Notes under the pieces: generated by a model
Databases searched by the model: none
What the model was told of the DNA's origin: nothing
Seen by the model: only the letters and a program-made list of their open reading frames with translations
Assembly (NCBI GenBank): GCA_028286605.1
Contig: JAQBRE010000002.1
Coordinates: 464,065-528,064, forward strand
Source: Parcubacteria group bacterium
Lineage (GTDB): Bacteria > Patescibacteriota > Minisyncoccia > Phycocordibacterales > Phycocordibacteraceae
Direction: 5' to 3'
DNA length: 64,000 nt
Translations under genes and position numbers: made by a program
Shown here: positions 182 to 56,630 of the stretch, one piece after another
How positions within the stretch are numbered: position 1 is the first letter of the stretch
Layout of the letters: each line of letters begins with the position of its first letter

Positions 182-733
182 ATGAAGAAGCCCATTACTC
201 CTCCGACGCTTACTGAGCGATTCACCACGTGGATAGGTTCACGCAGCTCGCTCATTGCACATACGATATTCTTCATTGCTTGCTTCTTGCTGGTGGCGCT
301 TTCGCTGGTTACGCTGACGACGATGCTGCTCGTGCTCACCACAGCCGTTTCCCTCGAAGCGATCTATCTCGCCATTTTCATTCAGATGACGGTGAACAAG
401 AACACGGCCAGCCTTCGTGAGGTGGAGGAAGACATCGATGAGATTCAAGAGGATGTGGAGGAGCTCGGCGAAGACCTGGATGAGATTCAGGAGGATATCG
501 GAGAAATTCAGGAAGACGTTGAAGAGATGTCCGAGGATATTGATGAGATTCAAGAGGACGTTGAAGAAATGTCTGAAGATATTGAGGAGATGAGCGAGGA
601 AGAAAAAGAGGAGGTAGAGAAAGAGGTGAAGCGAAAGAAGAAGATTGCCAGCGAGGCTGAACTCCTCGACAAGCTTTCACAGGATGTCAGCCAGCTTTTG
701 AAAGACCTTGAGGCATTGAAGAAAGGAAAATAG
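182..733 (+). CDS. Membrane protein (2 predicted TM helices) with long acidic heptad-repeat tail (EDxDEIQ x9) and lysine-rich coiled-coil C-terminus; sits where atpI usually is, function unknown
   Basis: ORF track; hydrophobic segments LIAHTIFFIACFLLVALSLVTL / LLVLTTAVSLEAIYLAIFI; nine 21-bp in-frame tandem repeats encoding EDIDEIQ/EDVEEMS units; directly upstream of atpB on same strand. Confidence 0.5.
   Translation: MKKPITPPTLTERFTTWIGSRSSLIAHTIFFIACFLLVALSLVTLTTMLLVLTTAVSLEAIYLAIFIQMTVNKNTASLREVEEDIDEIQEDVEELGEDLDEIQEDIGEIQEDVEEMSEDIDEIQEDVEEMSEDIEEMSEEEKEEVEKEVKRKKKIASEAELLDKLSQDVSQLLKDLEALKKGK
421..609 (+). repeat. 9 x 21-bp imperfect tandem repeat inside the 182-733 CDS (encodes acidic heptads)
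   Basis: gaagacatcgatgagattcaa / gaggatgtggaggagctcggc / gaagacctggatgagattcag ... read directly. Confidence 0.8.
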
Positions 734-9828: not shown

Positions 9829-10923
9829 ATGAAGATCGGTATCGTCGGACTCCCGAACGTCGGGAAATCAACACTATTCAATGCGCTTACGAAGGCGAGT
9901 GTGCCCGCGGAGAATTATCCGTTCTGCACCATAGACCCCTCCGTGGGCGTCGTTGGTGTGCCGGACGAACGTCTGGATAAGCTCGCTCTCCTTTCAGGTT
10001 CCGATAAGACCATTCCGGCAGCTATTGAGTTCGTCGATATCGCCGGCCTCGTGCAAGGCGCTTCTATGGGTGAAGGTCTGGGCAATCAATTCCTTTCACA
10101 TATCCGTGAAGTTGATGCCATTCTGGAAATGGTTCGTTTCTTCGATGATACCGATATTATCCATGTACATGGGGAAGTTGATCCGGTCCGTGATATCGAG
10201 GTTATCAATCTTGAGCTTATCCTTGCGGACCAGCAGAGCGTTACCGGCCGTCGTGAGCGTCTCACCGGCGATGTTCGTGCACAGAAGAAAGAAGCGGTCG
10301 CAGAAGATGCGGTGCTTTCCAAGATAGAGCAGGTTCTTCTTAAGGGCGGCCTTGCAATAACGGTTGATCTTTCGCCTGAGGAAGCGAAACTCATCAAGCC
10401 GATGAATCTTCTTACGCTGAAGCCGATCCTGTATGCGCTTAACGGAAAGTCTGGCGGCCACAACCTTGATGAAGTTAATGATGGACGTTCTCGTGCCGCG
10501 TTCGAGCTGATCGAATCATATGGCGCAGACTATGTTCGCGTAGACGCAGTAACAGAAGGCGAACTGAACGATGTTGCAGAAGAAGACAAACAGATGTTCC
10601 GCTCAGAGCTCGGCGTGTCTGAAGACGGCCTAGAAGCACTCATCCGTGGCGCATACCGAACACTCGGTCTCATCACCTTCTTCACCACAGGACCGAAGGA
10701 ATCACGCGCGTGGACGGTTGCGAAAGGCGCAACAGCGCCCGAGGCGGGCGCTGCCATTCATACTGATTTCAAAGACAAGTTCATCCGCGCTGAAGTGGTC
10801 GGCTGGGACACGCTCCTCGCAGACGGCTCATGGAGCGCTGCACGCGATAAGGGCGACATTCGTACGGAAGGAAAAACCTACGTCACTAAAGATGGCGACG
10901 TGATGGTTTTCCTGCATAGCTAA
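9829..10923 (+). CDS. ychF: Ribosome-binding ATPase YchF (Obg-family GTPase)
   Basis: MKIGIVGLPNVGKSTLFNALT G1 motif, TGS C-terminal domain (GDIRTEGKTYVTKDGDVMVF). Confidence 0.95.
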   Translation: MKIGIVGLPNVGKSTLFNALTKASVPAENYPFCTIDPSVGVVGVPDERLDKLALLSGSDKTIPAAIEFVDIAGLVQGASMGEGLGNQFLSHIREVDAILEMVRFFDDTDIIHVHGEVDPVRDIEVINLELILADQQSVTGRRERLTGDVRAQKKEAVAEDAVLSKIEQVLLKGGLAITVDLSPEEAKLIKPMNLLTLKPILYALNGKSGGHNLDEVNDGRSRAAFELIESYGADYVRVDAVTEGELNDVAEEDKQMFRSELGVSEDGLEALIRGAYRTLGLITFFTTGPKESRAWTVAKGATAPEAGAAIHTDFKDKFIRAEVVGWDTLLADGSWSAARDKGDIRTEGKTYVTKDGDVMVFLHS

Positions 10924-10930
10924 TCCTCCG

Positions 10931-10961
10931 GTTTGATCCCTAGTCTGCCAGCTCTCAATTT
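10931..10961. repeat. Repeat family A copy 1 (GTTYGATCCCTAGTCTGCCAGC) plus CCAGCTCTCAATTT segment
   Basis: Near-identical copy at 51462-51483; CCAGCTCTCAATTT recurs at 11577-11591. Confidence 0.7.
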
Positions 10962-10973
10962 ATATAAAAGAAA

Positions 10974-10991
10974 CCGCTCCAAATGGAGCGG
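10974..10991. terminator. Hairpin terminator shared by convergent ychF and HNH genes
   Basis: ccgctcc-aaat-ggagcgg preceded by A/T-rich ttatataaaagaaa. Confidence 0.5.
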
Positions 10992-11004
10992 CCAAGTGCC
11001 TGTG

Positions 11005-11349
11005 TTATGAGCGAGCTACATTGCAAACTTTGCAGGCCATTACCATGTTTTCAGGATGATCTAAACCACCCTTGCTTTTAGGGATTACATGCTCAATAGT
11101 TGCTGGTGATGTATCCAGTTCATTCGTTCGTACTCCACAATAACAGCAACGCCAATTTTGAGCTTCGCATAAACATACGAAAAACTCCCTACCTAATTTA
11201 AACGCTCTCCAGAAAATTGTTCCATCATGCCTAAAACTGACATCTTCCAAAGCCCATAACAATTCGATATCGAAGCCTTTTTTATCAAGATCAGGACTAG
11301 TTCGTTGCAAAGCTGCACGAATTGCAACTTCTTGGCACGTTGTCTGCAT
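11005..11349 (-). CDS. HNH endonuclease (115 aa; start trimmed to MQTTCQ with GGAGG RBS)
   Basis: CCYCG...IEHVIPKSKGG...NMVMACKVCN zinc-finger/HNH signature; ~42% GC, lower than flanks. Confidence 0.8.
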   Translation of the reverse strand: MQTTCQEVAIRAALQRTSPDLDKKGFDIELLWALEDVSFRHDGTIFWRAFKLGREFFVCLCEAQNWRCCYCGVRTNELDTSPATIEHVIPKSKGGLDHPENMVMACKVCNVARS

Positions 11350-11385
11350 AGTCAATCCTCCTCTGGACAGAACCCTAACACAGTT

Positions 11386-11420
11386 GCATAAAGGTTCCAA
11401 TATCGTCCCAGACAGCCAGC
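11386..11420. repeat. Repeat family B copy 1 (GCAKAAAGGTTCCAAYATCGTCCCAGACAGCCAGC)
   Basis: 33/35 identity with 52179-52213; shares GCCAGC/CCAGAC core with family A. Confidence 0.7.
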
Positions 11421-11576
11421 TAGTAAAACAGAAAACCGCCCAACGGGAAGCTTTCCGTTGGGCGGCAGTATTGCGCTAGATGAGGTTGAAGTAGCGGGCG
11501 ATAAGGGTTTCGCCAAGAGCGATTAAGCCCGTAACACAGAGAACGGTCGCTTGAAACCGTTCCTCTCGCCGCCTTT

Positions 11577-11591
11577 CCCAGCTCTCAATTT
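11577..11591. repeat. Second copy of CCAGCTCTCAATTT (candidate target-site duplication with 10947-10961)
   Basis: Direct 14-15 bp match read in sequence. Confidence 0.5.
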
Positions 11592-11610
11592 CCTGAGGGC
11601 TCAGAGGGGA

Positions 11611-11641
11611 CAGGGGCGGCCGCTTTGCGGCCGCCCCTGTC
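11611..11641. promoter_or_regulatory. Perfect 14-bp stem hairpin (acaggggcggccgc-ttt-gcggccgcccctgt) followed by TATAAT at 11651-11656, upstream of 11659 gene
   Basis: Seen directly; could be terminator/attenuator or protein-binding palindrome. Confidence 0.4.
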
Positions 11642-11658
11642 CTGTTTAGTGGTATAAT

Positions 11659-12636: not shown

Positions 12637-15537
12637 ATGGCAAAGAACAGTTTTGATCATCAGGAGATAGAGAAGAAAGCCCAGGCCAAGTGGGAAGCAT
12701 TGAATATATACGAGAGCGATCTTACGGACACGACGAAAGATCCGTTCTACCTTCTGTTTGAATTCCCGTATCCGTCAGGCGATCTGCATGTGGGGCATTG
12801 GTATGCCTTCGCACTAACCGACATATACGCGCGTTTCCTGCGTATGAAGGGAAAGAATGTGTTGTTTCCTATCGGCTTTGATGCCTTCGGCTTGCCTGCG
12901 GAGAACGCGGCGATAAAGAACGGCGTGAACCCGCGTGATTGGACGTATGCGAACATGGAACGCATGCGTGCGCAGATACGAACGATGGGAACCTCCGTGG
13001 ACTGGAACAAGGAAGTGGTGACCTGCAGCCCTGAATACTACAAGTGGACGCAATGGCTCTTCGCGAAGCTGTATGAGCACAAGCTTGCCGAGCGTCGTAA
13101 TGCATCGGTGAAGTGGTGCCCACATGACCTAACCGTACTCGCGAACGAGCAGGTTATCGATGGTCACTGCGAACGCTGCGGAAGCGTCGTTGAAGAGAAG
13201 TTCCTTACGCAGTGGTTCCTCAAGATCACTGAATACGCCGAACGCTTGCTTACAGATTTGGAACCGCTTCCATGGCGTGAAGATATAAAAGATGCCCAGC
13301 GCGCATGGATAGGAAAGTCTGAAGGCGCGAAGCTTCGCTTCCAGGTGGTGAATGCCGACACGGCGATGGCACCCATAAGCAGTGCAGAAGGCTCAACTGC
13401 AATCGAGGTGTTCACCACGCGCCCTGATACGATATTCGGCGCAACCTATGTAGTGCTCGCCCCGGAACACGCACTTATTGATACATTGATGCCGGTATTC
13501 ACGAATGCAGACGCCGTCAACGCATATCGCGAAACGACTGCACGAAAGACGGAGCGCGAGCGCTCCGAGAATAAGGAGAAGACCGGCGTGCGGCTTGAAG
13601 GCGTAATGGCGGTCAACCCTGCAACGCTGAAAGAGATTCCCATCTACGTCGCAGACTATGTGCTCGGTTCATACGGAACTGGCGCCGTTATGGCCGTACC
13701 TGCGCATGATGAACGTGATTTCGCATTCGCGCAGAAGTTCGATCTCCCTATCGTGCATGTTATTGATCCTGTCACGGGTGAGAAACAGGAGAATCCAACG
13801 GATAAAGCAAAGATTGTCGCACTCGTTGAGAACGCTAAGGGCGAAGTTCTTACCATTCACTGGAAGCCTGAACTTGGCGGGCGATTGCTTGTTGGCGGCA
13901 CTGCAGAAGAGGGCGAAGAGGCAAGCGTAACCGCAGCTCGTGAGATTACAGAAGAAACCGGCTATGCAGACCTTGAACTTGTTGAGCAGGCAGATGAGCA
14001 GGTCCATCATGAATACTTCGCATTCTCGAAGAACAAGGCATGGATAGCGCATTCGACGCTCCTTCACTTCAAGCTGAAGAGCGAGAAGCAGAACGAACAG
14101 GCGCTTGAGGAAGATGAGAAAGGAAAGTTTACGGTTGAGTGGGTTACGCCTGAAGTGGCGGCGCGCGAGATACATGACGAGCTTCACGAATACGTACTAC
14201 AGCGCTTCACGAACTATCAGCCGTATACCGGTAATGGATTACTCCGTAACTCGGGTTCATTCGATGGCCGCAGCAATCAGGAGGTCATGAATGAGATCGT
14301 CGCTGCAGTCGGCGGCGAGATAACGACGAACTATCGCATTCGCGACTGGCTCGTCTCGCGTCAGCGCTATTGGGGATGCCCGATTCCTGTCGTCTATGAT
14401 CCGGAAGGGAATGCGCACCTTGTTCCGACCGAGCACCTACCGTGGCTGCTTCCGGAAGATGTGGACTTTACGCCCGGCGCCGGAGGCGCCGGTAATTCCC
14501 CGCTCGCGACGAGTAAAGAACTTAAAGAGCGCGTCGAGCGCTTGTTCGGCGAAGGCTGGACGCCTGAATATGACACGCTCGATACATTCGTGGATTCTTC
14601 CTGGTATTTCCTTCGGTATCTAGATTCGAAGGACGATCACGATTTCTCGGACCCTGCCATGATGAAGCAATGGCTTCCGGTTAATCGCTATGCCGGCGGC
14701 GCAGAGCATACCACTATGCATCTTCTGTATGCGCGTTTCTTCCAGAAGGCACTGTTCGATCTTGCTCTCGTTCCCACCGCCGAGCCATTTTTCGAACGAT
14801 ACAACCGTGGACTCGTTATGGGTCCTGACGGCCAGAAGATGTCTAAATCGAAAGGGAACGTCATTAACCCTGATGAAGTGGTGGAGAAATACGGCGCAGA
14901 TACTGTGCGCATGTATCTCGCCTTCCTTGGTCCGTACAACGAACCGGGTAATTATCCCTGGAAGCCTGAAGGCGTATTCGCGATGCGAAAGTTCCTGGAC
15001 CGCATCGTCGCCCTTTCCCAGCGCCTCTCGGACGAAGAACCGAATGATGCGACACTGCGCGCCCTTGCTAAGGCAACCGAGAAAGTGGCCCTTGATACCG
15101 AACGCTTCAAGCTGAACACGGCAATCTCTACTCTTATGGTGCTTACGAACGAGCTTGAGGCTTTAGCTTCGGTTCCGAAGAGCGCATATCTTCAGTTGGT
15201 GACGATACTCGCACCCTATGCGCCGCACGTGGCTGAATACCTATTCGAGAGTACGCAGCTAACCAGCACGCATACGGAAATCGATTCCGCGGGTACAAGC
15301 ATCCATCAGCAGCTCTGGCCTGAGGTTGATGAAGCGATGCTGACCAGCGAAACTATCACTATGGGCGTGCAGATCGCTGGAAAACGCCGCGGGGAAGTGA
15401 CGTTGAGCCCTGAAGCGAGCGAAGAAGAAGCGCTTGCGGCAGCCCTTGGGGTGCCAGAAGTGCAGAAGTACCTGGAGGGCCGGCTGCCGGCCCGGGTGAT
15501 ATATGTTCCAGGTCGTATATTGAACCTGATACTCTAG
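12637..15537 (+). CDS. leuS: Leucine--tRNA ligase with an inserted Nudix-box domain
   Basis: HIGH-class motif HVGH (aa 51-54), editing-domain TTRPDT, KMSKS (QKMSKSKG); 966 aa; insertion aa ~385-525 contains exact Nudix box. Confidence 0.95.
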   Translation: MAKNSFDHQEIEKKAQAKWEALNIYESDLTDTTKDPFYLLFEFPYPSGDLHVGHWYAFALTDIYARFLRMKGKNVLFPIGFDAFGLPAENAAIKNGVNPRDWTYANMERMRAQIRTMGTSVDWNKEVVTCSPEYYKWTQWLFAKLYEHKLAERRNASVKWCPHDLTVLANEQVIDGHCERCGSVVEEKFLTQWFLKITEYAERLLTDLEPLPWREDIKDAQRAWIGKSEGAKLRFQVVNADTAMAPISSAEGSTAIEVFTTRPDTIFGATYVVLAPEHALIDTLMPVFTNADAVNAYRETTARKTERERSENKEKTGVRLEGVMAVNPATLKEIPIYVADYVLGSYGTGAVMAVPAHDERDFAFAQKFDLPIVHVIDPVTGEKQENPTDKAKIVALVENAKGEVLTIHWKPELGGRLLVGGTAEEGEEASVTAAREITEETGYADLELVEQADEQVHHEYFAFSKNKAWIAHSTLLHFKLKSEKQNEQALEEDEKGKFTVEWVTPEVAAREIHDELHEYVLQRFTNYQPYTGNGLLRNSGSFDGRSNQEVMNEIVAAVGGEITTNYRIRDWLVSRQRYWGCPIPVVYDPEGNAHLVPTEHLPWLLPEDVDFTPGAGGAGNSPLATSKELKERVERLFGEGWTPEYDTLDTFVDSSWYFLRYLDSKDDHDFSDPAMMKQWLPVNRYAGGAEHTTMHLLYARFFQKALFDLALVPTAEPFFERYNRGLVMGPDGQKMSKSKGNVINPDEVVEKYGADTVRMYLAFLGPYNEPGNYPWKPEGVFAMRKFLDRIVALSQRLSDEEPNDATLRALAKATEKVALDTERFKLNTAISTLMVLTNELEALASVPKSAYLQLVTILAPYAPHVAEYLFESTQLTSTHTEIDSAGTSIHQQLWPEVDEAMLTSETITMGVQIAGKRRGEVTLSPEASEEEALAAALGVPEVQKYLEGRLPARVIYVPGRILNLIL

Positions 15538-35140: not shown

Positions 35141-35485
35141 TTATTTGAAGTTGAACAGACGTAACTTGAAACGCCTCGGCTTCCAGTCGTAATGAGCGTC
35201 TGCCCATCTTCTAGCCAGAGTGAGCAGCAAGATTCCTCCCAAACCCATAAAACCGGGAATCCGTTGGCTCGTGGGTTCTATAAGCATCATGCCTAAGCAC
35301 AACACTAATGCAGCCGCCATGCTGCCTAAGAATAGCAACAAGAATTTGTAAGGCCTTCGTGCGAATGGCGGAGGCTTCGAAGCTGGCAATGATCCAGACT
35401 TCGTGGTCGCATCATCAAGATGAACGACCTTGTCGCCATGGGAGCGAAAAAACCTCCCACGCTTTCTTACTTCAAGATAGGACAT
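35141..35485 (-). CDS. Hypothetical membrane protein
   Basis: ORF track; 2 hydrophobic helices. Confidence 0.35.
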   Translation of the reverse strand: MSYLEVRKRGRFFRSHGDKVVHLDDATTKSGSLPASKPPPFARRPYKFLLLFLGSMAAALVLCLGMMLIEPTSQRIPGFMGLGGILLLTLARRWADAHYDWKPRRFKLRLFNFK

Positions 35486-35582
35486 CGTGAATCGCTCCAA
35501 GTGACAATGGTTCCTCTTGTATCTCAACAAAACCTTCGATTAAAGTCAACACGACCCAGCTCGTCTAAGCATACTGGAAGAG

Positions 35583-35660
35583 GTTAGAACCTGTTTTGTA
35601 TAAAAGAAAGCCGCCCGGAGGAACGCGGCAAGGATATTCCTCCGGGTTCGCTTCGGGCGG
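35583..35660 (-). repeat. Terminator-tail repeat family copy 2
   Basis: hairpin ccgcccgaagcgaacccggagg/cctccgggcggc then TTTCTTTTATACAAAACAGGTTCTAAC (minus strand). Confidence 0.6.
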
Positions 35661-36068
35661 TCATGATGCCGTTTCGGGTTCCTGCTTGGGCACAGCGTAC
35701 ATATTCCAGTCATCGTCGAAACGGATCGACAGGTCAGTCTTCTGTTCGGGATATGCCCTGTGTACTGACCACTTAAGCATCTCGAACAGTATCGGTCTCA
35801 TTACATGCAGTTCGAAATGGTCGAAATCCACATATGGATTGATGCCGAACGGCTCGCCGCTAATCACATGCATTCGGTCGTGGCTCAGCACGACCTGACT
35901 ATAGAGCAACGCGATAGCCCGCTGCTCTTTGGTCGCTTTGCCGATCAGGATCTCGTCCGGCCTTCTCTTGAGCAGGAGTTGCGGCGGTGCAGCGGAGTTT
36001 TTGTGCGACAGTAGCTCCGAGAGGCTTTCATAAAGTCTCGCAGTGATTGCCAGAATATCCTCTTCCAA
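35661..36068 (-). CDS. Hypothetical protein (135 aa)
   Basis: ORF track; own terminator. Confidence 0.45.
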   Translation of the reverse strand: MEEDILAITARLYESLSELLSHKNSAAPPQLLLKRRPDEILIGKATKEQRAIALLYSQVVLSHDRMHVISGEPFGINPYVDFDHFELHVMRPILFEMLKWSVHRAYPEQKTDLSIRFDDDWNMYAVPKQEPETAS

Positions 36069-36158
36069 AGATCTCTCCTTTGTCTAGCCGATAGGCTTAG
36101 TTACTTTATTGAATATTTAATATGAATTGTCAAGTATTTGCTCCACTGGCTGGAGGAT

Positions 36159-36233
36159 GTTCGAACCTGCTTTGTATAAAAAGAAGCCGCCCGAAGAGCG
36201 GGGAGATTGCTCTCCGGTCGGCTCTTCGAGCGG
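36159..36233 (-). repeat. Terminator-tail repeat family copy 3
   Basis: hairpin ccgctcgaagagccgaccggagagc...gctcttcgggcggc then TTCTTTTTATACAAAGCAGGTTCGAAC (minus strand). Confidence 0.6.
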
Positions 36234-36461
36234 TTAGTTGAAATCGTTGATGAACTTCTCCATCTCTTCTGGCTTGCTTAGATGTCCGCCCATCATGAGC
36301 TGCATACCAAGCATAATTGCCGGATGGTTTTCAGTCGAAGAGTCGCTCCTGAGATCAGTCACCATCGAAGCATAGGCTCCAGGTATGTCGCCCGACTTCA
36401 GGACATCGAGTGCACGTACCTTGCACCATTCAAGATGATTTTGTTCTGCCATTTCAAACAC
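36234..36461 (-). CDS. Small hypothetical protein (75 aa)
   Basis: ORF track; own terminator copy. Confidence 0.4.
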   Translation of the reverse strand: MFEMAEQNHLEWCKVRALDVLKSGDIPGAYASMVTDLRSDSSTENHPAIMLGMQLMMGGHLSKPEEMEKFINDFN

Positions 36462-36930: not shown

Positions 36931-37011
36931 GACGCACCTTTCTAAAACGGCAAAGAGCCTGTTGATTCAGGCTCTATAATAAACATATTTATACTACATT
37001 GTCAACTCGAG

Positions 37012-37083
37012 CTCCGCGGGTAGGATTCGAACCTACGACCAAGTCGTTAACAGCGACCTGCTCTACCACTGAGCTACCGCGGA
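37012..37083 (-). tRNA. tRNA-Asn (anticodon GTT), CCA not encoded
   Basis: Minus strand TCCGCGGTAGCTCAGTGGTAGAGCAGGTCGCTGTTAACGACTTGGTCGTAGGTTCGAATCCTACCCGCGGAG folds into cloverleaf: 7-bp acceptor, D-arm GCTC/GAGC, anticodon loop CTGTTAA, T-loop TTCGAAT. Confidence 0.9.
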
Positions 37084-45841: not shown

Positions 45842-46315
45842 ATGAAAGAAAACTCATCTGCAGAAAATAGAATTACAAAAATTATTTCGTTAGTGGACGA
45901 GTACTTTCTACTTGATAAAGGAGACCTGATAGATAATCATGTGGAACTTTTACGTATTGCTGACATTCCAAATAATGCATCTCTCAAACATCCGCATGCT
46001 CTATGTAGAGTTTATATCTCCAGAAGAGCACGAAAACATTTTGTTGAGGAACGAAAGGAGGCTTTTTTTATTAAGCATTCAGAAGTTGAAACTTTAGATG
46101 CAATACATTTTGCAATACGCATGATTAGCGACGTGCTGTCAGATTTTGATTATCTCGAATACGAACCTAAAACTATACCTTCAAAATATTTTTACTCGAA
46201 AGACTATCGAGACATCGGGCGTCCAGCAGTACGTATTCTTGTTGAGGAGAAAGAAAAAACGCTTCAAATACGTTCAATACATTTCCAAACCCGTGACGAT
46301 GATAGGCAGAAATGA
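45842..46315 (+). CDS. Hypothetical protein in AT-rich islet
   Basis: ORF track; ~36% GC; terminator 46315-46342. Confidence 0.45.
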   Translation: MKENSSAENRITKIISLVDEYFLLDKGDLIDNHVELLRIADIPNNASLKHPHALCRVYISRRARKHFVEERKEAFFIKHSEVETLDAIHFAIRMISDVLSDFDYLEYEPKTIPSKYFYSKDYRDIGRPAVRILVEEKEKTLQIRSIHFQTRDDDRQK

Positions 46316-50436: not shown

Positions 50437-51462
50437 ATGACTGTTCGCGAGCGAGCTCACTCGATGTTCGTGTCCGTGCGATTCTGGCTGACCGAACAGA
50501 AACTCCGCACAAGAGCACTGAAAGGAAAATGGCGTTATGTGGTCGCAGCAATCGTGCTCGTATTGCTCATTCCTATATACATCCTCTTCACGCCAGCGGT
50601 TGGTTTCCCGAAAGGACAGATCATTTCGATTCCTGCAGACAGCGCGAGCGATCAGATCGCGAGCCAGCTTGCTGCACAGCATGTGATACGAAGCGCGTTT
50701 CAGTTCAAAGTACTCGCACGCCTCACCGGACAGGATCGTCAGCTTGAATCCGGCATGTACGTATTCAAACAGTCACTCGGACTCGTGAGTGTTATGAATC
50801 GACTCGCCACCGGTAATCACGGCATCGCCGAAGCACGCGTTACGTTAACGGAAGGCATGACGGCGAAAGACATGGCACAGGTAATCGCAGCACAGCTTCC
50901 TGGCTTCGATACCACAGGATTCCTGAACGCCGCATCAACGAGCGAAGGGTATCTGTTCCCCGATACCTATTTCATTCTCCCTGGCACGACACCGGAAGAT
51001 ATCGTACAGCGTTTACACACTCAATTCGATGCGAAGGTTGCGACCATACAGCCACAGATCACTAAGTTCGGAAAACCGCTTCGCGATGATGTGATTATCG
51101 CCTCAATACTCGAGCGCGAAGTGAAAGGTACGAAAGATGAGCGTATTGTTGCAGGAATTCTTTATAATCGCCTCAATAAAGGCATGCCGTTGCAAGTTGA
51201 TGCTGCGTTCGGCTATGCGCATGACATAGATGGCTACACGCCGACTTCTGCAGATCTCACCGGAAACTCTCCGTACAACACGTATCGTTTCTCTGGCCTC
51301 CCGCCGACACCAATATCTAACCCCGGCTTGGATTCGCTTCTTGCTGCCGTTACTCCTACGAAAACTTCCTACATCTATTACATAACCGGCACCGATGGCA
51401 CGATGCATTACGCGACGACGTTCGCACAGCACGAAGCCAACATCGCAAAGTATTTAAAATAG
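50437..51462 (+). CDS. mltG: Endolytic murein transglycosylase MltG (YceG-like); start trimmed
   Basis: N-terminal TM; SILEREV...GILYNRL...GMPLQVDAAFGY YceG signature. Confidence 0.8.
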   Translation: MTVRERAHSMFVSVRFWLTEQKLRTRALKGKWRYVVAAIVLVLLIPIYILFTPAVGFPKGQIISIPADSASDQIASQLAAQHVIRSAFQFKVLARLTGQDRQLESGMYVFKQSLGLVSVMNRLATGNHGIAEARVTLTEGMTAKDMAQVIAAQLPGFDTTGFLNAASTSEGYLFPDTYFILPGTTPEDIVQRLHTQFDAKVATIQPQITKFGKPLRDDVIIASILEREVKGTKDERIVAGILYNRLNKGMPLQVDAAFGYAHDIDGYTPTSADLTGNSPYNTYRFSGLPPTPISNPGLDSLLAAVTPTKTSYIYYITGTDGTMHYATTFAQHEANIAKYLK

Positions 51463-51483
51463 TTCGATCCCTAGTCTGCCAGC
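51462..51483. repeat. Repeat family A copy 2
   Basis: GTTCGATCCCTAGTCTGCCAGC immediately after mltG stop; then TTTTTATAAAAGAAAA + hairpin gcgctgagttc-gagta-gaactcagcgc. Confidence 0.7.
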
Positions 51484-51537
51484 AATATTTTTATAAAAGA
51501 AAAGCGCTGAGTTCGAGTAGAACTCAGCGCCGTTTTC

Positions 51538-52071
51538 TTAGGTCAAGAACAACGCACGAACCTCAAAAGGAGAGACAAGACGGAGATAGGCATGCGCCGC
51601 CACCTTCACGCTCTCGCTTGAGGTATTGTCTCCAGCGCTGACGATAAAGCGCTTCAGCTTTTTCCCGTGCCGATGCTCCTCAACAGTGAAAGGTATAGTC
51701 GATCTGAATCGCATCGTTGCTTCGCGTTCTTTGAGGAACTCGGAAAAACGATTCGCGATTTCTTTACGGGCGGACTCTGCCCATTTCGTTGAATGGATGG
51801 CTTTCGCCAACTTTTCTTCGAGGACTTCATCAAAGGTTTCTGCCCACCCGCGCAATACGAGCCCGTACAATATTGCGTGCTGCTCGAAATAAAACGCACC
51901 GGTAGGTAATGACGTGATGATGCGTTCTCCTACTCTGGCGCCCAGAGCAGTATCTGCAGCAGTCAGTTCCCAGATACCGCCGAGGACGGCGGCAACCGCG
52001 GAGCCGTCTCTTCGCTGGTCAGCCGCAAGGACAAAATCAATTAGTCTCTTGTACTCAGTAATACCGGCCAT
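51538..52071 (-). CDS. Hypothetical protein (177 aa) inside A/B-flanked cassette 2
   Basis: ORF track. Confidence 0.45.
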   Translation of the reverse strand: MAGITEYKRLIDFVLAADQRRDGSAVAAVLGGIWELTAADTALGARVGERIITSLPTGAFYFEQHAILYGLVLRGWAETFDEVLEEKLAKAIHSTKWAESARKEIANRFSEFLKEREATMRFRSTIPFTVEEHRHGKKLKRFIVSAGDNTSSESVKVAAHAYLRLVSPFEVRALFLT

Positions 52072-52178
52072 GGCCGATTCCTTCCTGCACCGTGGTGCAA
52101 CTGGGTTGTGGTCCGTGGACCAAGAGGACCGTAGTCCAGAGAGACTATGTCATACGAATAGAGTGTTGTCATTACGCT

Positions 52179-52213
52179 GCAGAAAGGTTCCAACATCGTC
52201 CCAGACAGCCAGC
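52179..52213. repeat. Repeat family B copy 2
   Basis: GCAGAAAGGTTCCAACATCGTCCCAGACAGCCAGC; followed by hairpin gcccccacacgccggattgcggtgggggc. Confidence 0.7.
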
Positions 52214-52261
52214 AACGAAAAGCCCCCACACGCCGGATTGCGGTGGGGGCATAAAAATAAT

Positions 52262-52675
52262 CTAAAACTCGACAGCTGCCGCGAGACGATATGGCTCGAG
52301 ACGTTCCTTGAGGGCAGGGAACTGTTCAAGAATCCCGTTTAGAAAGATAGGAAGCATTTGGTGCATGGCCAAGACATTCTTGAGATTTGGTTGCACACTA
52401 TATCCCAATGAAGCTCCACACTGACCTGCATAGATTAGGTTTCCGTGTGGAGTCCAGCAGTGCAGAACATATAGATACTCCTGTGAGTAGACGCCAGTTA
52501 TACGCCATCTGCCAGTGGAATCAGTACCAATATCCAACGCGTCTTTAGTGCTACCGTGAAGAAATTCTTCTGCCGTAAGGCTGCTCATACACAGCCGAAT
52601 GGTCGTATCTATATCCTTCTTCATACGGTCGATATTTTCTTGTCCTCGAACAAGGTCTGAAACTGAAAGGTTCAT
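52262..52675 (-). CDS. Hypothetical protein (137 aa)
   Basis: ORF track. Confidence 0.4.
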   Translation of the reverse strand: MNLSVSDLVRGQENIDRMKKDIDTTIRLCMSSLTAEEFLHGSTKDALDIGTDSTGRWRITGVYSQEYLYVLHCWTPHGNLIYAGQCGASLGYSVQPNLKNVLAMHQMLPIFLNGILEQFPALKERLEPYRLAAAVEF

Positions 52676-52818
52676 AGAACGTTCCTATTCACTAGGACCC
52701 TCACGGGTGTTAATAGGCATCACTGCCTTGGGTTCTACCCGAAACCACTTTGATACTATTTACATAATGTGTCAAATACAACGGTTCAAACAGCCAGCAA
52801 AAGAGCGCAACATGCGGT

Positions 52819-53871: not shown

Positions 53872-54702
53872 ATGGCTGAAATAGTTAAAGCAGACGGAAC
53901 GATAGAGACATTCCTTCCGGAGAAACTCGAGGATTCGCTGCGTCGTGCAGGCGCAGGTGCCGGTGCTGCAGAAAAGATCCGTCGTACCATCGAAGCGAGC
54001 ATCGCGCCGGGTTCAGAGAGCAATGACATCTATAGGCGCGCGTTCCAGATGCTTCGCACGGAAGGGCGGGCCGCAGCGGCACGCTACAGCCTGCGTCGCG
54101 CACTTTTCGAATTCGGTCCATCTGGCCACCCGTTCGAAGACTTCGTTGGCGAGCTTTTCAAGAAAGAGGGCTGGAATATCGAGACGCGACGACTCATCCC
54201 TGGAAAGTGCGTCACGCATGAGGTGGATGTGTATGCGACGCGTGGAAAAGAAACGCTTGCTGCGGAACTCAAATATCATAATGATCCAGGATACAAGACC
54301 GACGTGAAGATCGCACTCTATGTAAAAGCGCGCTTCGACGACATCTGGCAGTGCGATCCGAACGTGCAGGGAACCTGCCCGATAGATCGCGGATACCTTA
54401 TCACCAACACGAAGTTCACGTCGCAGGCTATCGAATACGCTACCTGTTCCGGCATGAATCTTCTTGGCTGGAGCTATCCGCATCACGGAAACCTGTATGA
54501 CCGCATCATCGCGAGCGCACTGTATCCGATAACCGCACTCACTACGCTGCGCAAAGCAGAGAAGCGCCTCCTTATCGATCGCAACATCTCCACCACGGAC
54601 CTCCTTCGCCAGCATCGTGAATTGCTCCGCGAGATCGGCGTATCGCCTGAACGCGTCGGCGCTATCGTCGCAGAAATTGAGACCTTGAACGATACGCGAT
54701 AG
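53872..54702 (+). CDS. ATP-cone domain fused to Mrr-like (PD-(D/E)XK) restriction-endonuclease domain
   Basis: N-terminal ATP-cone-like MAEIVKADGTIETFLPEKLEDSLRRAG...AEKIRRTIEASI; nuclease core FEDFVGELF...HEVDVYA...AELKY (D...E-x-K); ATG abuts mnmA TAA. Confidence 0.7.
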   Translation: MAEIVKADGTIETFLPEKLEDSLRRAGAGAGAAEKIRRTIEASIAPGSESNDIYRRAFQMLRTEGRAAAARYSLRRALFEFGPSGHPFEDFVGELFKKEGWNIETRRLIPGKCVTHEVDVYATRGKETLAAELKYHNDPGYKTDVKIALYVKARFDDIWQCDPNVQGTCPIDRGYLITNTKFTSQAIEYATCSGMNLLGWSYPHHGNLYDRIIASALYPITALTTLRKAEKRLLIDRNISTTDLLRQHRELLREIGVSPERVGAIVAEIETLNDTR

Positions 54703-54711
54703 AATAGGTGC

Positions 54712-55512
54712 ATGGCTGAATACGTTAAGAGATATAACCCGAACCGTAGTCCTGATTGGAACTATGGCGGCCCGAAGTGGCGTCTCTCACGTTCGAAGAT
54801 AGAGCTTTTCACTGAATGCCCGCGTTGTTTCTATTTAGATAATAAGCTCGGCACCGCACGTCCGCGCGGCCCTTCCTTCACGCTCAACATCGCCGTTGAT
54901 GCGCTCCTGAAGAAAGAATTCGATGAGCATCGCATAGAAGGTTCGGCGCACCCACTCATGGAGCAGTACGGCATCGACGCGATTCCGTTCAAGCATAAGA
55001 ATATGAATACATGGCGCGAGAACTTCGAGGGCGTGGAGTTTAAGCATAAAGAAACGGGCTTCACTATTTCTGGTGCCGTTGACGATATCTGGGTTAATCC
55101 AGAAGGCGAGCTTATCGTCGTGGACTACAAGGCGACATCAAAGGAAGGAAAGATCGTAACGCTCGACGACTCCTCGTGGAAAGACCAGTACAGCCGGCAG
55201 ATGGGCGTGTATCAGTGGCTGCTCCGTAACAACGGCTTCACCGTTTCACCGAAGGGATATTTCGTATATGCGAATGCAAGCAGCGACAAAGCAGCGTTCG
55301 ATGGCCAGCTTGAGTTCGATGTGACTGTCGTGCCGATGGAGGGCGACACTTCATGGATAGATGAGATCCTTCCGAAGATAAAGACAGCACTCGATAGCGA
55401 TGAGATTCCCGCAACCGGAAGCGCCTGCGAGTTCTGCCCGTACCGTGAAGCAGCAGGGAAGAAGCTGCTCGATCTCCACAAGAAAAGCCTGCACATCAAG
55501 AAGACAGACTAG
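54712..55512 (+). CDS. PD-(D/E)XK nuclease with four-Cys cluster (Cas4/RecB-nuclease-like, DUF83-type)
   Basis: N-terminal CPRC, VVDYKATS (D-x-K), C-terminal CEFCPY. Confidence 0.65.
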   Translation: MAEYVKRYNPNRSPDWNYGGPKWRLSRSKIELFTECPRCFYLDNKLGTARPRGPSFTLNIAVDALLKKEFDEHRIEGSAHPLMEQYGIDAIPFKHKNMNTWRENFEGVEFKHKETGFTISGAVDDIWVNPEGELIVVDYKATSKEGKIVTLDDSSWKDQYSRQMGVYQWLLRNNGFTVSPKGYFVYANASSDKAAFDGQLEFDVTVVPMEGDTSWIDEILPKIKTALDSDEIPATGSACEFCPYREAAGKKLLDLHKKSLHIKKTD

Positions 55513-56243: not shown

Positions 56244-56630
56244 TCACATTTTACATTTACGTTCACACATCACGCTTAAGAAATGAAGCTTTCCTGAAGG
56301 CTTATTGCGTATAACAACAACTTTTACCTCACATTCAACACCATTGGTGAATACAGGAAATGATAGACCCCACGTTACTACGAGCGGGTCTTCAGATTTA
56401 ATCATTTCAAATGCTTGAATAGCATTTGAAAGAACAATATGAATATAGGGAAGAAGGCTCAATCGATAGCGCCTCTGGGATTTTATTCTTGGGCGCTGCG
56501 TACGTCTGTCATATAACAAGTGGTGTAACCCTTCCGAGTTAAAGTAAATCATTTCCTGCAAGGCTGCACAGAAGATAGGTTGGAAAGATCTATAAAGTGA
56601 CTTCTGTTTCTCCTCAAAGGACTTTTGCAT
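56244..56630 (-). CDS. Hypothetical protein in AT-rich islet
   Basis: ORF track; ~38% GC region 56080-56700. Confidence 0.35.
   Translation of the reverse strand: MQKSFEEKQKSLYRSFQPIFCAALQEMIYFNSEGLHHLLYDRRTQRPRIKSQRRYRLSLLPYIHIVLSNAIQAFEMIKSEDPLVVTWGLSFPVFTNGVECEVKVVVIRNKPSGKLHFLSVMCERKCKM

Follow-up and report, generated by a model that had tools for sequence, protein, structure and literature searches.

Single-gene cassettes bounded by tRNA-like motifs downstream of ychF in a Parcubacteria genome, including a recently moved HNH gene

INTRODUCTION

Several described systems carry small genes as short movable units. The mob genes of phage T4 are free-standing HNH homing endonuclease genes. 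On Acinetobacter plasmids, small modules are bordered by pdif sites; these XerC/XerD sites are 28 bp long, follow an 11-6-11 inverted-repeat layout and alternate in orientation. Minimal mobile elements were reportedly described in Neisseria by Saunders and Snyder in 2002, a work cited in PMC1538595; to our knowledge, these have no conserved boundary motifs of their own and move only between copies of the same flanking gene pair. Where integrases act at tRNA genes, partial-tRNA repeats between tandem elements are their accepted footprint, and new arrivals push older elements away from the tRNA (10.1101/2020.12.28.424599). Here we describe a locus that shares some traits with each of these systems, and also with integrons: the spacer between ychF and a DUF5671 gene, with a small HNH endonuclease gene inside it, in a 64,000-nucleotide stretch of the genome of a Parcubacteria group bacterium (contig JAQBRE010000002.1, positions 464,065 to 528,064), hereafter called the window.

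Parcubacteria belong to the Candidate Phyla Radiation (CPR), whose genomes are very small (~0.5 Mb here) and in which gene acquisition is poorly understood. In a limited literature search we found no description of arrays of the present kind in CPR bacteria. A first-pass annotation of the window had placed the HNH gene in a mobile, low-GC segment edged by two repeats, A and B, and had proposed that the segment was inserted once, like a transposon. We have followed up these claims by comparing the locus with loci and contigs from related genomes, which are labelled L001, L003, L006, L175 and so on.

RESULTS

The ychF–DUF5671 spacer is a short array of single-gene cassettes

The spacer between ychF (9829-10923) and the DUF5671 gene measures 735 nt in the window. 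We observed that it is a short array of single-gene cassettes, all on the minus strand, in which each cassette consists of a B-type module, a leader and one open reading frame (ORF), and in which an A-type site closes the array. Across all the arrays described below, a cassette holds one small ORF or none.

The A-type site is the repeat A seen at the left edge of the HNH gene in the first-pass annotation. It is real, reads GGTTTGATCCCTAGTCTGCCAGC at 10930-10952 and starts one base to the left of the position given earlier (10931). It begins 6 nt past the ychF stop codon, and on the minus strand, where it closes the array beside that stop codon, its sequence is GCTGGCAGACTAGGGATCAAACC. The first cassette (cassette 1) is opened by a B-type site at 11385-11420 on the same strand (GCTGGCTGTCTGGGACGATATTGGAACCTTTATGCA), in which a diverged tRNA-like block is fused to a −35 element; repeat B had been placed at 11386-11420 and is present there. 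The segment that follows (11350-11400, minus strand) is a module shared with other cassettes and consists of a promoter-like element, with a putative promoter function, and a leader. Its −35 sequence, TTGGAA (11395-11400), is separated by a 17-nt spacer from TG and then TAGGGT (11372-11380), and the leader contains TGTCCAGA at 11362-11369 and a ribosome binding site (RBS), GGAGGA, at 11356-11361.

The cargo of cassette 1 is the HNH endonuclease ORF at 11005-11349 (minus strand, 114 amino acids, aa), an assignment borne out by Pfam (HNH and HNH_5, PF01844 and PF14279, residues 68-112, E = 1.9e-9). The domain is intact and is also matched by PHROG HNH families; among the structures of PDB, the protein matches HNH domains of the Cas9/IscB type (E = 1e-4). 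Known HNH domains are matched only by the C-terminal ~55 aa of the protein. Its homologs are rare: we found 16 proteins at E ≤ 1e-3, and only three of them, besides the protein itself, align over nearly the full length (49–56% identity). The low GC content claimed for this gene also holds: its value is 0.409, whereas ychF has 0.531, the DUF5671 gene 0.545 and the window as a whole 0.518. The tetranucleotide CTAG, whose conservation in the repeats had drawn attention earlier, is indeed scarce, since the window contains 62 occurrences vs 249 expected from base composition (an approximately four-fold under-representation) and 91 expected from trinucleotide counts.

Two intrinsic terminators on the minus strand lie just upstream of A and B in the direction of transcription (10993-10972 and 11466-11435, respectively). 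The one after the HNH gene (10972-10993) has a 9-bp stem followed by TCTTTTATAT, and the one upstream of B (11435-11466) has a 12-bp stem followed by TTTCTGTTTT. The terminator at 10972-10993 belongs with the A-type site and not with the HNH cassette, because it shows four substitutions relative to L001, two of them compensatory, whereas the HNH gene shows none.

Beyond the second terminator, an open frame at 11478-11600 (minus strand) has no ATG, GTG or TTG start and is preceded by a very degenerate copy of the motif (GCTGGGAAAGG...GGAAC). It is probably a decayed older cassette. All three of its differences from L001 change an amino acid, and no homolog of it was present in any fetched locus. 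A reading of the same frame as a small membrane protein was rejected on account of the missing start codon and these amino-acid-changing differences (3/3). The far edge of the array is marked by a GC-rich hairpin at 11608-11642, to which no strand is assigned. This hairpin had been reported earlier with a 14-bp stem; the hairpin is there, and its stem is larger, being formed by a perfect 16-bp inverted repeat (11608-11623 and 11627-11642) that folds as a 17-bp stem (−45.3 kcal/mol, z = −6.8). The TGGTATAAT promoter of the DUF5671 gene follows closely downstream of it.

We also recorded an imperfect direct repeat of 18 nt (16/18 identical) between 10912-10929, CTGCATAGCTAATCCTCC, which is the end of ychF plus 6 nt, and 11344-11361, CTGCATAGTCAATCCTCC, which is antisense to the HNH start codon and RBS. 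The repeat is weaker in L001 (13/18) and could be due to chance or be a trace of old recombination.

A second array between mltG and mnmA has the same grammar

When A and B are compared with each other alone, their likeness is weak (12/15). Both recur at a second site in the window. The 17-nt core, GCTGGCWGWCTRGGGAY, is found exactly once more, at 51467-51483 (0.08 matches expected); A matches 51462-51503 (42 nt, 79%) and B matches 52178-52221 (44 nt, 89%). This second site (51461-52800), located between mltG (YceG) and mnmA, carries both motif types around two unrelated small ORFs.

On the minus strand, array 2 starts with B'' (52783-52798), a B-type copy with an 11-nt internal deletion in which GCTGGCTGT is joined to TTGAACC, at 20 nt from the mnmA start codon. 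It is followed by a 137-aa ORF (52262-52675) that has no family match in any library, and then by the terminator of this ORF, at 52222-52250, and B' (52178-52213), which opens the next cassette. The cargo of the latter is a 177-aa ORF (51538-52071), again without a family match, with a terminator at ~51503-51533. The array is closed by A' (51461-51483), an A-type site that abuts the mltG stop codon. The two arrays of the window, therefore, share one grammar: the B-type motif opens each cassette, and an A-type motif ends the array where it meets a convergent housekeeping gene. Most of the motif copies, here and in the related genomes, are preceded by an intrinsic terminator, which in the two arrays of the window has a T-tail. 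The exceptions are B'', the B-type copy of L195 and the first A-type copy of L175, and these are the copies that have no co-oriented gene just upstream.

A third array-like region (35141-36300) is present downstream of the tRNA-Asn gene (37011-37083). Its small minus-strand ORFs, 35141-35530 and 35661-36068, have no family match, and their terminators are followed by a 47-nt repeat (35574-35620 and 36150-36196, 85% identical). On the minus strand the repeat reads AGGTTCGAACATCCTCCAGCCAG; it is similar to an oppositely oriented B-type motif that has lost 5 nt, and also to the 3′ end of tRNA-Asn plus the downstream TTGACAAT.

Beside array 2, downstream of mnmA (53872-55512), we noted two nuclease-like genes: the first has an ATP-cone and a weak, sub-threshold match to Mrr-like restriction endonucleases, and the second is PD-(D/E)XK/Cas4-like.

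The A-type motif has the shape of a tRNA 3′ end

The A-type motif (GCTGGCAGACTAGGGATCGAAC) corresponds, in reverse complement, to the last 23 nt of a tRNA-Gln-like gene, from the T-loop to the discriminator. On the plus strand it reads GGTTCGATC-CCTAG-TCTGCCA-G-C, that is, the T-loop (GGTTTGATC), the 3′ half of the T-stem, the 7-nt acceptor strand, discriminator G and then C. The 3′ end of the tRNA-Asn of the window is built likewise, with no encoded CCA. When the motif was compared in register with the 48 tRNA genes of the fetched loci, the best matches were tRNA-Gln 3′ ends (12 of the 15 best; the top one, 19/23, is a Paceibacterota tRNA-Gln), in a set where tRNA-Gln is enriched through the choice of loci by way of ychF. 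A fragment as short as the A-type site is below what Rfam is able to score. In L194 we observed a complete T-arm, CTAGG-TTCGAAC-CCTAG, which overlaps the ychF stop codon.

A-type copies matching 20–22 of the 23 bases are present in L001, L175 (two copies), L194 and L195, and conservation across the seven A-type copies extends from the T-loop to two bases past the discriminator. In L194 the site is retained at 21/23 positions vs 76% for the last 200 nt of ychF. Because the A-type motif is better conserved than the adjoining coding sequence, the motifs appear to be under constraint.

The B-type motif (~36 nt) shares the acceptor and T-stem portion, GCTGGCWGTCTRGG, with the A-type motif and continues into GACGATGTTGGAACCTTT, which supplies the −35-like TTGGAA. 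Near-identical copies are present in L175 (three), L194 and L195. At least five cassettes from five genomes have the arrangement TTGGAA, 17 nt, TGnTAnnnT and then TGTCCAGA plus an RBS. The module is common to four unrelated ORFs from these five genomes, and we take it to be a putative promoter; some B-type copies are without a convincing −10 element, and a strict sigma-70 scan made no call at the promoter-like element. In one cassette of L175 the ORF is inverted relative to B, and L203 has the promoter module without the tRNA-like block; the tRNA-like block, therefore, has a role of its own. The positions of the two motif types are constant: the A-type motif is always at the end of the array, next to a conserved chromosomal gene, and the B-type motif is always internal.

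A number of other readings of the motifs did not hold. Sigma-54, extracytoplasmic-function sigma and LexA-box readings do not fit in their spacing and half-sites, as judged by inspection. A retroelement primer-binding site complementary to a tRNA end is contradicted by the mismatch at the position of the CCA complement and by the lack of a reverse transcriptase. An attC-like fold of terminator plus motif is not tenable, as the hairpins differ between homologous cassettes. The suggestion that the motifs are transcribed as small RNAs found no support, since apart from the tRNA-Asn there is no Rfam match in the window, the L175 array or L194, and the motif sits upstream of the promoter-like element.

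Among viral contigs, no match was obtained with A-type 18- and 19-mers. A B-type 18-mer occurs in 11 contigs of a single prophage family with unrelated flanks, which we judged to be due to chance. The 17-mer GGGACGATRTTGGAACC matched 44 contigs. Approximately 36 of these 44 matches are one and the same coding stretch (..VVWDDVGTF..) in high-GC contigs, and four more contigs, from a second family, have VWDDIGT within a polyprotein of large size (2,449 aa in L243); these matches were judged a coincidence arising from codon constraint. The identity to the ..VVWDDVGTF.. stretch covers 24 nt of the B-type motif (TGTCTGGGACGATGTTGGAACCTT, window 52183-52206) in the viral loci L208–L249. It is longer than the search seed; it is probably a coincidence of codon constraint and is recorded here as unexplained.

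Related genomes carry other genes between the same motifs

The nearest GTDB representatives have YchF proteins only 77–79% identical to that of the window, and in one of them, L006, the DUF5671 gene starts 33 nt after ychF. The whole 735-nt spacer of the window is, therefore, a lineage-specific addition, and the ancestral state was without an array. Comparison of the orthologous ychF-downstream regions, which had been put forward earlier as a check, thus revealed an insert-free locus as well as relatives that carry other genes between the same two motifs. In L195 and L196 (YchF 93% identical), ychF is followed by an A-type site, a terminator, an unrelated 95-aa ORF and a B-type site. In L197 (91%) a 101-aa ORF is surrounded by decayed copies of the two motifs, and L203 (90%) has only the promoter part of B, before a 54-aa ORF. 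No motifs were found in 21 kb of each of L198 (90%) and L199–L202 (88%).

The sole homolog of the 177-aa ORF of the window is 60% identical and lies in L194, a groundwater locus, between a B-type and an A-type site at the 3′ end of ychF. The same cassette thus occupies the mltG/A' site in the window and the ychF/A site in L194, and nucleotide homology between the two copies starts within 2 nt of the B motif. In homologous cassettes the similarity generally runs from the B motif to near the stop codon, and the terminators are not conserved. Hence, what stands next to ychF and its A-type site is the HNH gene in the window and L001, the 95-aa ORF in L195 and the 177-aa homolog in L194.

A further array was seen in L175/L176, near dnaA-dnaN of another Parcubacteria genome, where the B-type motif occurs three times in full and once in part and the A-type motif twice. 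It includes the nearest full-length homolog of the HNH protein (56% identical), with GCTGGCAGTCTGGGACGATGTTGGAACCTTTCTGCAAC before it and another B-type copy after it, and it ends with GCTGGCAGACTAGGGATCGAACC. Both A-type copies of L175 are located 12–35 nt upstream of the −10 elements of co-oriented genes. After dnaN (L175 3871-4600) there are also two units without a credible ORF or Rfam match, of which one starts with a TTGGAACC −35-like element and the second with a complete B-type copy; both may be cassettes for non-coding RNA.

The cargo proteins are mutually unrelated, and the HNH protein alone has a family match. Six of the non-HNH cargos and a neighbouring 83-aa gene, seven small ORFs in all, had no match in PHROGs or PADLOC and so receive neither a phage nor a defence label. 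Among the 1.4 Mb of fetched loci, only those of this clade carry the motifs. It had been suggested that the motifs might prove to be ubiquitous terminator context; they are absent from ~1.3 Mb of other CPR and bacterial ychF loci. A YchF scan of metagenome contigs gave nothing closer than 72% identity and no further motif-bearing locus. Look-ups of the exact products of the DUF5671 and MnmA genes gave no match, probably because the recorded start codons differ.

These comparisons bear on the possibility that the motifs are vertically inherited regulatory DNA, consisting of the promoter and operator of a clade-specific regulator, and that the cassette differences are ordinary gene gain and loss. 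The recurrence of the −35-like TTGGAA, 17 nt and TGnTAnnnT in five B-type cassettes would fit this explanation, as would the placement of the L175 A-type copies 12–35 nt upstream of −10 elements of co-oriented genes. However, in both arrays of the window and in L001, L194 and L195 the A-type motif faces the 3′ end of a convergent gene, where there is nothing to regulate. The inverted ORF in one cassette is not accommodated either; identical modules on unrelated cargos, together with one cargo at two sites, argue that the units move, and the zero-mismatch tract described below points to recent transfer. We, therefore, hold a purely regulatory origin of the pattern to be very improbable.

The HNH cassette has moved recently

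The tract 10988-11459 (minus strand), which is 472 bp long, shows no difference from strain L001/L003. In the same comparison ychF is 92–94.5% identical and the flanking spacers are 90–95% identical. Zero mismatches in 472 bp, vs a 5–10% difference in the flanks, indicate a recent transfer. Within the tract lie the HNH gene with its leader, the B site and half of the terminator upstream of B; in L001 that terminator has two mismatches in its 5′ arm, which results in a hybrid hairpin. The cassette that moved is the one adjoining the A-type site, and the outer unit is probably decayed. The HNH gene is thus recently moved cargo in a cassette array. The earlier view that it lies in a mobile, foreign-looking segment edged by A and B is borne out by the identical 472-bp tract and by the unrelated genes found at the same site in relatives; that view had recognised neither the tRNA-like shape of A nor the many unrelated cargos besides the HNH gene.

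The HNH gene could by itself account for such a transfer if it were a free-standing homing endonuclease, which would cut HNH-less alleles near the ychF spacer and be copied in during repair; the repeats would then be its target or co-converted flanks. Several features are of the kind that homing would give: the locus is polymorphic for presence and absence among relatives, with an identical copy (a 100% identical tract) in a diverged background; the catalytic HNH domain looks intact; and the gene has low GC, its own promoter-like element and terminator, and relatives in viral contigs (33–56% identity). On the other hand, the same A/B boundaries enclose at least four other unrelated, non-nuclease cargos in HNH-less arrays (array 2, L194 and L195); hence, the nuclease cannot be what drives the cassettes in general. 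Members of the HNH family are very few, whereas several genomes carry the motifs, and no cleavage site is definable. Homing as the explanation of the locus, therefore, seems improbable to us.

The exact 14-mer and the single-insertion model

The first-pass annotation had treated the HNH segment as a non-autonomous transposon of ~630 bp inserted once, with a 14-bp target-site duplication, CCAGCTCTCAATTT. The 14-mer itself is found exactly at 10948-10961 and 11578-11591 on the plus strand, starting one base to the right of the earlier placement. It stands at both ends of the 630-bp span, such pairs are several-fold rarer in simulated sequence, and removal of the span would leave a tidy layout of ychF, A-type site, hairpin and DUF5671 promoter.

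However, the span is not of one age. The part 10988-11459 is identical to L001, whereas 10962-10987 and 11460-11577 mismatch at approximately the chromosomal rate (the outer part, 11460-11600, diverges by 5.7%, which is chromosome-like). The tract that moved is much shorter than 630 bp and ends inside the span. No inverted repeat joins the ends of 10948-11591, and there is no transposase. Of the 14 bases, five already belong to the shared motif, at its start. In L001 one base differs between the two copies, and no duplication is present at the second array or at the arrays of other genomes. No empty site was found. Moreover, two more exact 14-mer pairs less than 1 kb apart occur in the window, giving three independent pairs within 1 kb vs 0.44 expected. 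The target-site duplication is, therefore, not supported, and we regard the single-insertion model as hardly credible. The 14-mer itself is real and only modestly unusual.

One of the other pairs is CGAAGATAGAGCTT at 54794 and 55736, 942 nt apart; pairs of this sort are not unique to the HNH locus.

Other features of the window

The first ORF of the window (182-733) has Pfam matches of the coiled-coil and DUF948-like kinds and contains an acidic E/D-rich repeat, which is encoded by an imperfect 21/33-nt tandem repeat (419-619). In the leucyl-tRNA synthetase (12637-15537), the editing domain is directly followed by an inserted NUDIX hydrolase domain (residues 393-523, Pfam E = 1.7e-11), and according to gene tables this architecture is shared by the close relatives L195–L202. 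Two low-GC orphan ORFs, 45842-46315 and 56244-56630 (GC 0.36 and 0.39, respectively), have no Pfam match and are flanked by strong terminators; they carry neither A-type nor B-type motif and are probably separate acquisitions.

DISCUSSION

Serial insertion at tRNA-like sites

We propose that the cassettes were placed by serial site-specific recombination at tRNA-like sites, with a recombinase provided in trans, and we would put the probability of this explanation at about one half. Cassettes would be inserted singly beside the A-type site, through recombination of the tRNA-like site of the cassette with that of the chromosome. The enzyme itself would come from another part of the genome or from a helper element, and new insertions would push the older cassettes outward, where they would decay. 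Serial insertion is favoured because the arrays combine a fixed site resembling a tRNA end, derived cassette sites, swapped cargos and the newest material beside the terminal site, and because partial-tRNA repeats are an accepted integrase footprint (10.1101/2020.12.28.424599). The HNH nuclease would be a cargo like the others; it may add a homing-like drive of its own, which is not needed for the other cassettes.

Several observations weigh against serial site-specific insertion. Neither the ~45 ORFs of the window scanned in Pfam nor the gene tables of L175 and L195–L197 contain a recombinase. Neither array has an intact tRNA at its proximal end, as the tRNA-Asn at 37011-37083 is the sole tRNA detected in the window by ARAGORN and Rfam. 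No circular cassette and no empty A-type site were seen, and the motif is without an obvious inverted-repeat core of the kind that tyrosine recombinases usually bind. The carriers amount to only approximately six independent genomes of one genus-level clade (YchF at least 88% identical where the full protein is known), and the enrichment of tRNA-Gln in the comparison set weakens the tRNA-Gln match somewhat. Finally, the identical tract ends off the motif edges, on one side between the HNH stop codon and the terminator and on the other 39 nt beyond B. A 39-nt identity beyond B has a probability of ~0.1 by chance at the divergence of the flanks, so that the upstream end of the tract may still lie at the B site.

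The tract pattern could also be given by ordinary homologous recombination between strains, and recombination of this type alone is the main rival explanation. The locus would then be a 'minimal mobile element', at which the DNA of relatives replaces what lies between conserved sequences with no dedicated recombinase. The anchors would be ychF and the DUF5671 gene, or else the 23–45-nt A and B modules, and the modules would persist because they supply promoters and terminators and serve as homology anchors. The ends of the identical tract within homologous terminators, with the hybrid hairpin in L001, are as crossovers in the flanks would give; the site is between conserved genes in all relatives, the window is without a detected recombinase (~45 ORFs, Pfam), and the promoter module of L203 persists without the tRNA-like block. 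However, the 177-aa cassette is present at two sites that share only 23–36-nt motifs, which is very short for RecA-type exchange. Homologous recombination would also leave unexplained the exact tRNA 3′-end shape of the A-type motif, from T-loop to discriminator, its better preservation than that of the neighbouring coding sequence, and the rule that A-type sites are always terminal and B-type sites always internal. As the only process at work, we consider homologous recombination unlikely, although it is the strongest of the competitors to serial site-specific insertion.

A wider proposition, which we advance tentatively and do not consider the likely outcome, is that this Parcubacteria lineage has a cassette-capture system of its own, in which 23-nt mimics of the tRNA-Gln 3′ end beside housekeeping genes might serve as landing pads and promoter-bearing cassettes would be added serially by a recombinase whose gene lies elsewhere. 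If true, the swapping of promoter-equipped genes at tRNA-like pads would give a flexible gene pool without large mobile elements, and if a dedicated recombinase exists, its target is already defined to ~23 nt. With the A-type and B-type motifs as a simple signature, CPR metagenomes can be searched for accessory ORFan genes. Attachment-site repeats of the partial-tRNA type that stand away from any tRNA gene would be missed by island finders anchored on intact tRNAs. For annotation, the HNH gene is best treated as a recently acquired cargo, outside the ychF neighbourhood proper.

Comparison with known systems

Like the mob genes of phage T4, the HNH gene of the window is a small HNH ORF of low GC with its promoter-like element and terminator, placed between conserved genes, and has an identical copy in a diverged background. 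It differs from them in its chromosomal CPR setting, in having no known target and in having boundary modules that are common to non-nuclease cassettes. The cassettes are comparable with pdif modules in being small and recombinase-less, with short conserved sites, and pdif modules are likewise thought to be moved by a host recombinase in trans; here, in contrast, the sites are directly repeated, non-palindromic and tRNA-like. With the minimal mobile elements of Neisseria, the locus shares the presence of differing cassettes in one spacer between conserved genes, the lack of a recombinase or inverted repeats at the site, and tracts that fit homologous recombination. Unlike those elements, the present cassettes carry conserved A/B boundaries and occur at different sites.

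The tycheposon islands of Prochlorococcus (10.1101/2020.12.28.424599) are close to the present arrays in several respects: partial copies of tRNA 3′ ends separate the elements, most variation is at the tRNA-like end while older material decays outward, and the host genome is small and streamlined, with no classical mobile elements nearby. Our arrays, however, lack a full-length tRNA at their proximal end, the 23-nt site abuts the stop codon of a protein gene, and the same tRNA-like site recurs at several non-tRNA loci. The units are of one gene and 0.45–0.7 kb, without integrase, replication or packaging genes. Their internal (B-type) repeats are not simple copies of a tRNA end but a separate derivative of it that is itself conserved.

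Integrons resemble the arrays in that single-gene units with unrelated, mostly uncharacterised cargo are arranged beside a fixed platform site at one end, with one type of site per cassette, no recombinase inside the cassettes and the newest cassette apparently by the fixed site; the process envisaged here is akin to attI × attC capture. Unlike integrons, the arrays have no adjacent intI and are flanked by ychF, the DUF5671 gene, mltG and mnmA. The boundary is a non-palindromic block of 23–36 nt and not an attC hairpin with R''/L''/L'/R' boxes, and by inspection, with no formal attC model, no GTTRRRY/RYYYAAC pair was visible at either array. Most cassettes appear to have their own promoter-like element and terminator in place of a common Pc, the arrays are very short (1–3 cassettes) with at least two per 64 kb, and the fixed site mimics a tRNA 3′ end. 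From their sequence, then, the arrays lack defining features of both integrons and tRNA-anchored islands; if true, the capture system would be a functional analogue of the integron, with an attachment site of the tRNA type and several small arrays per genome.

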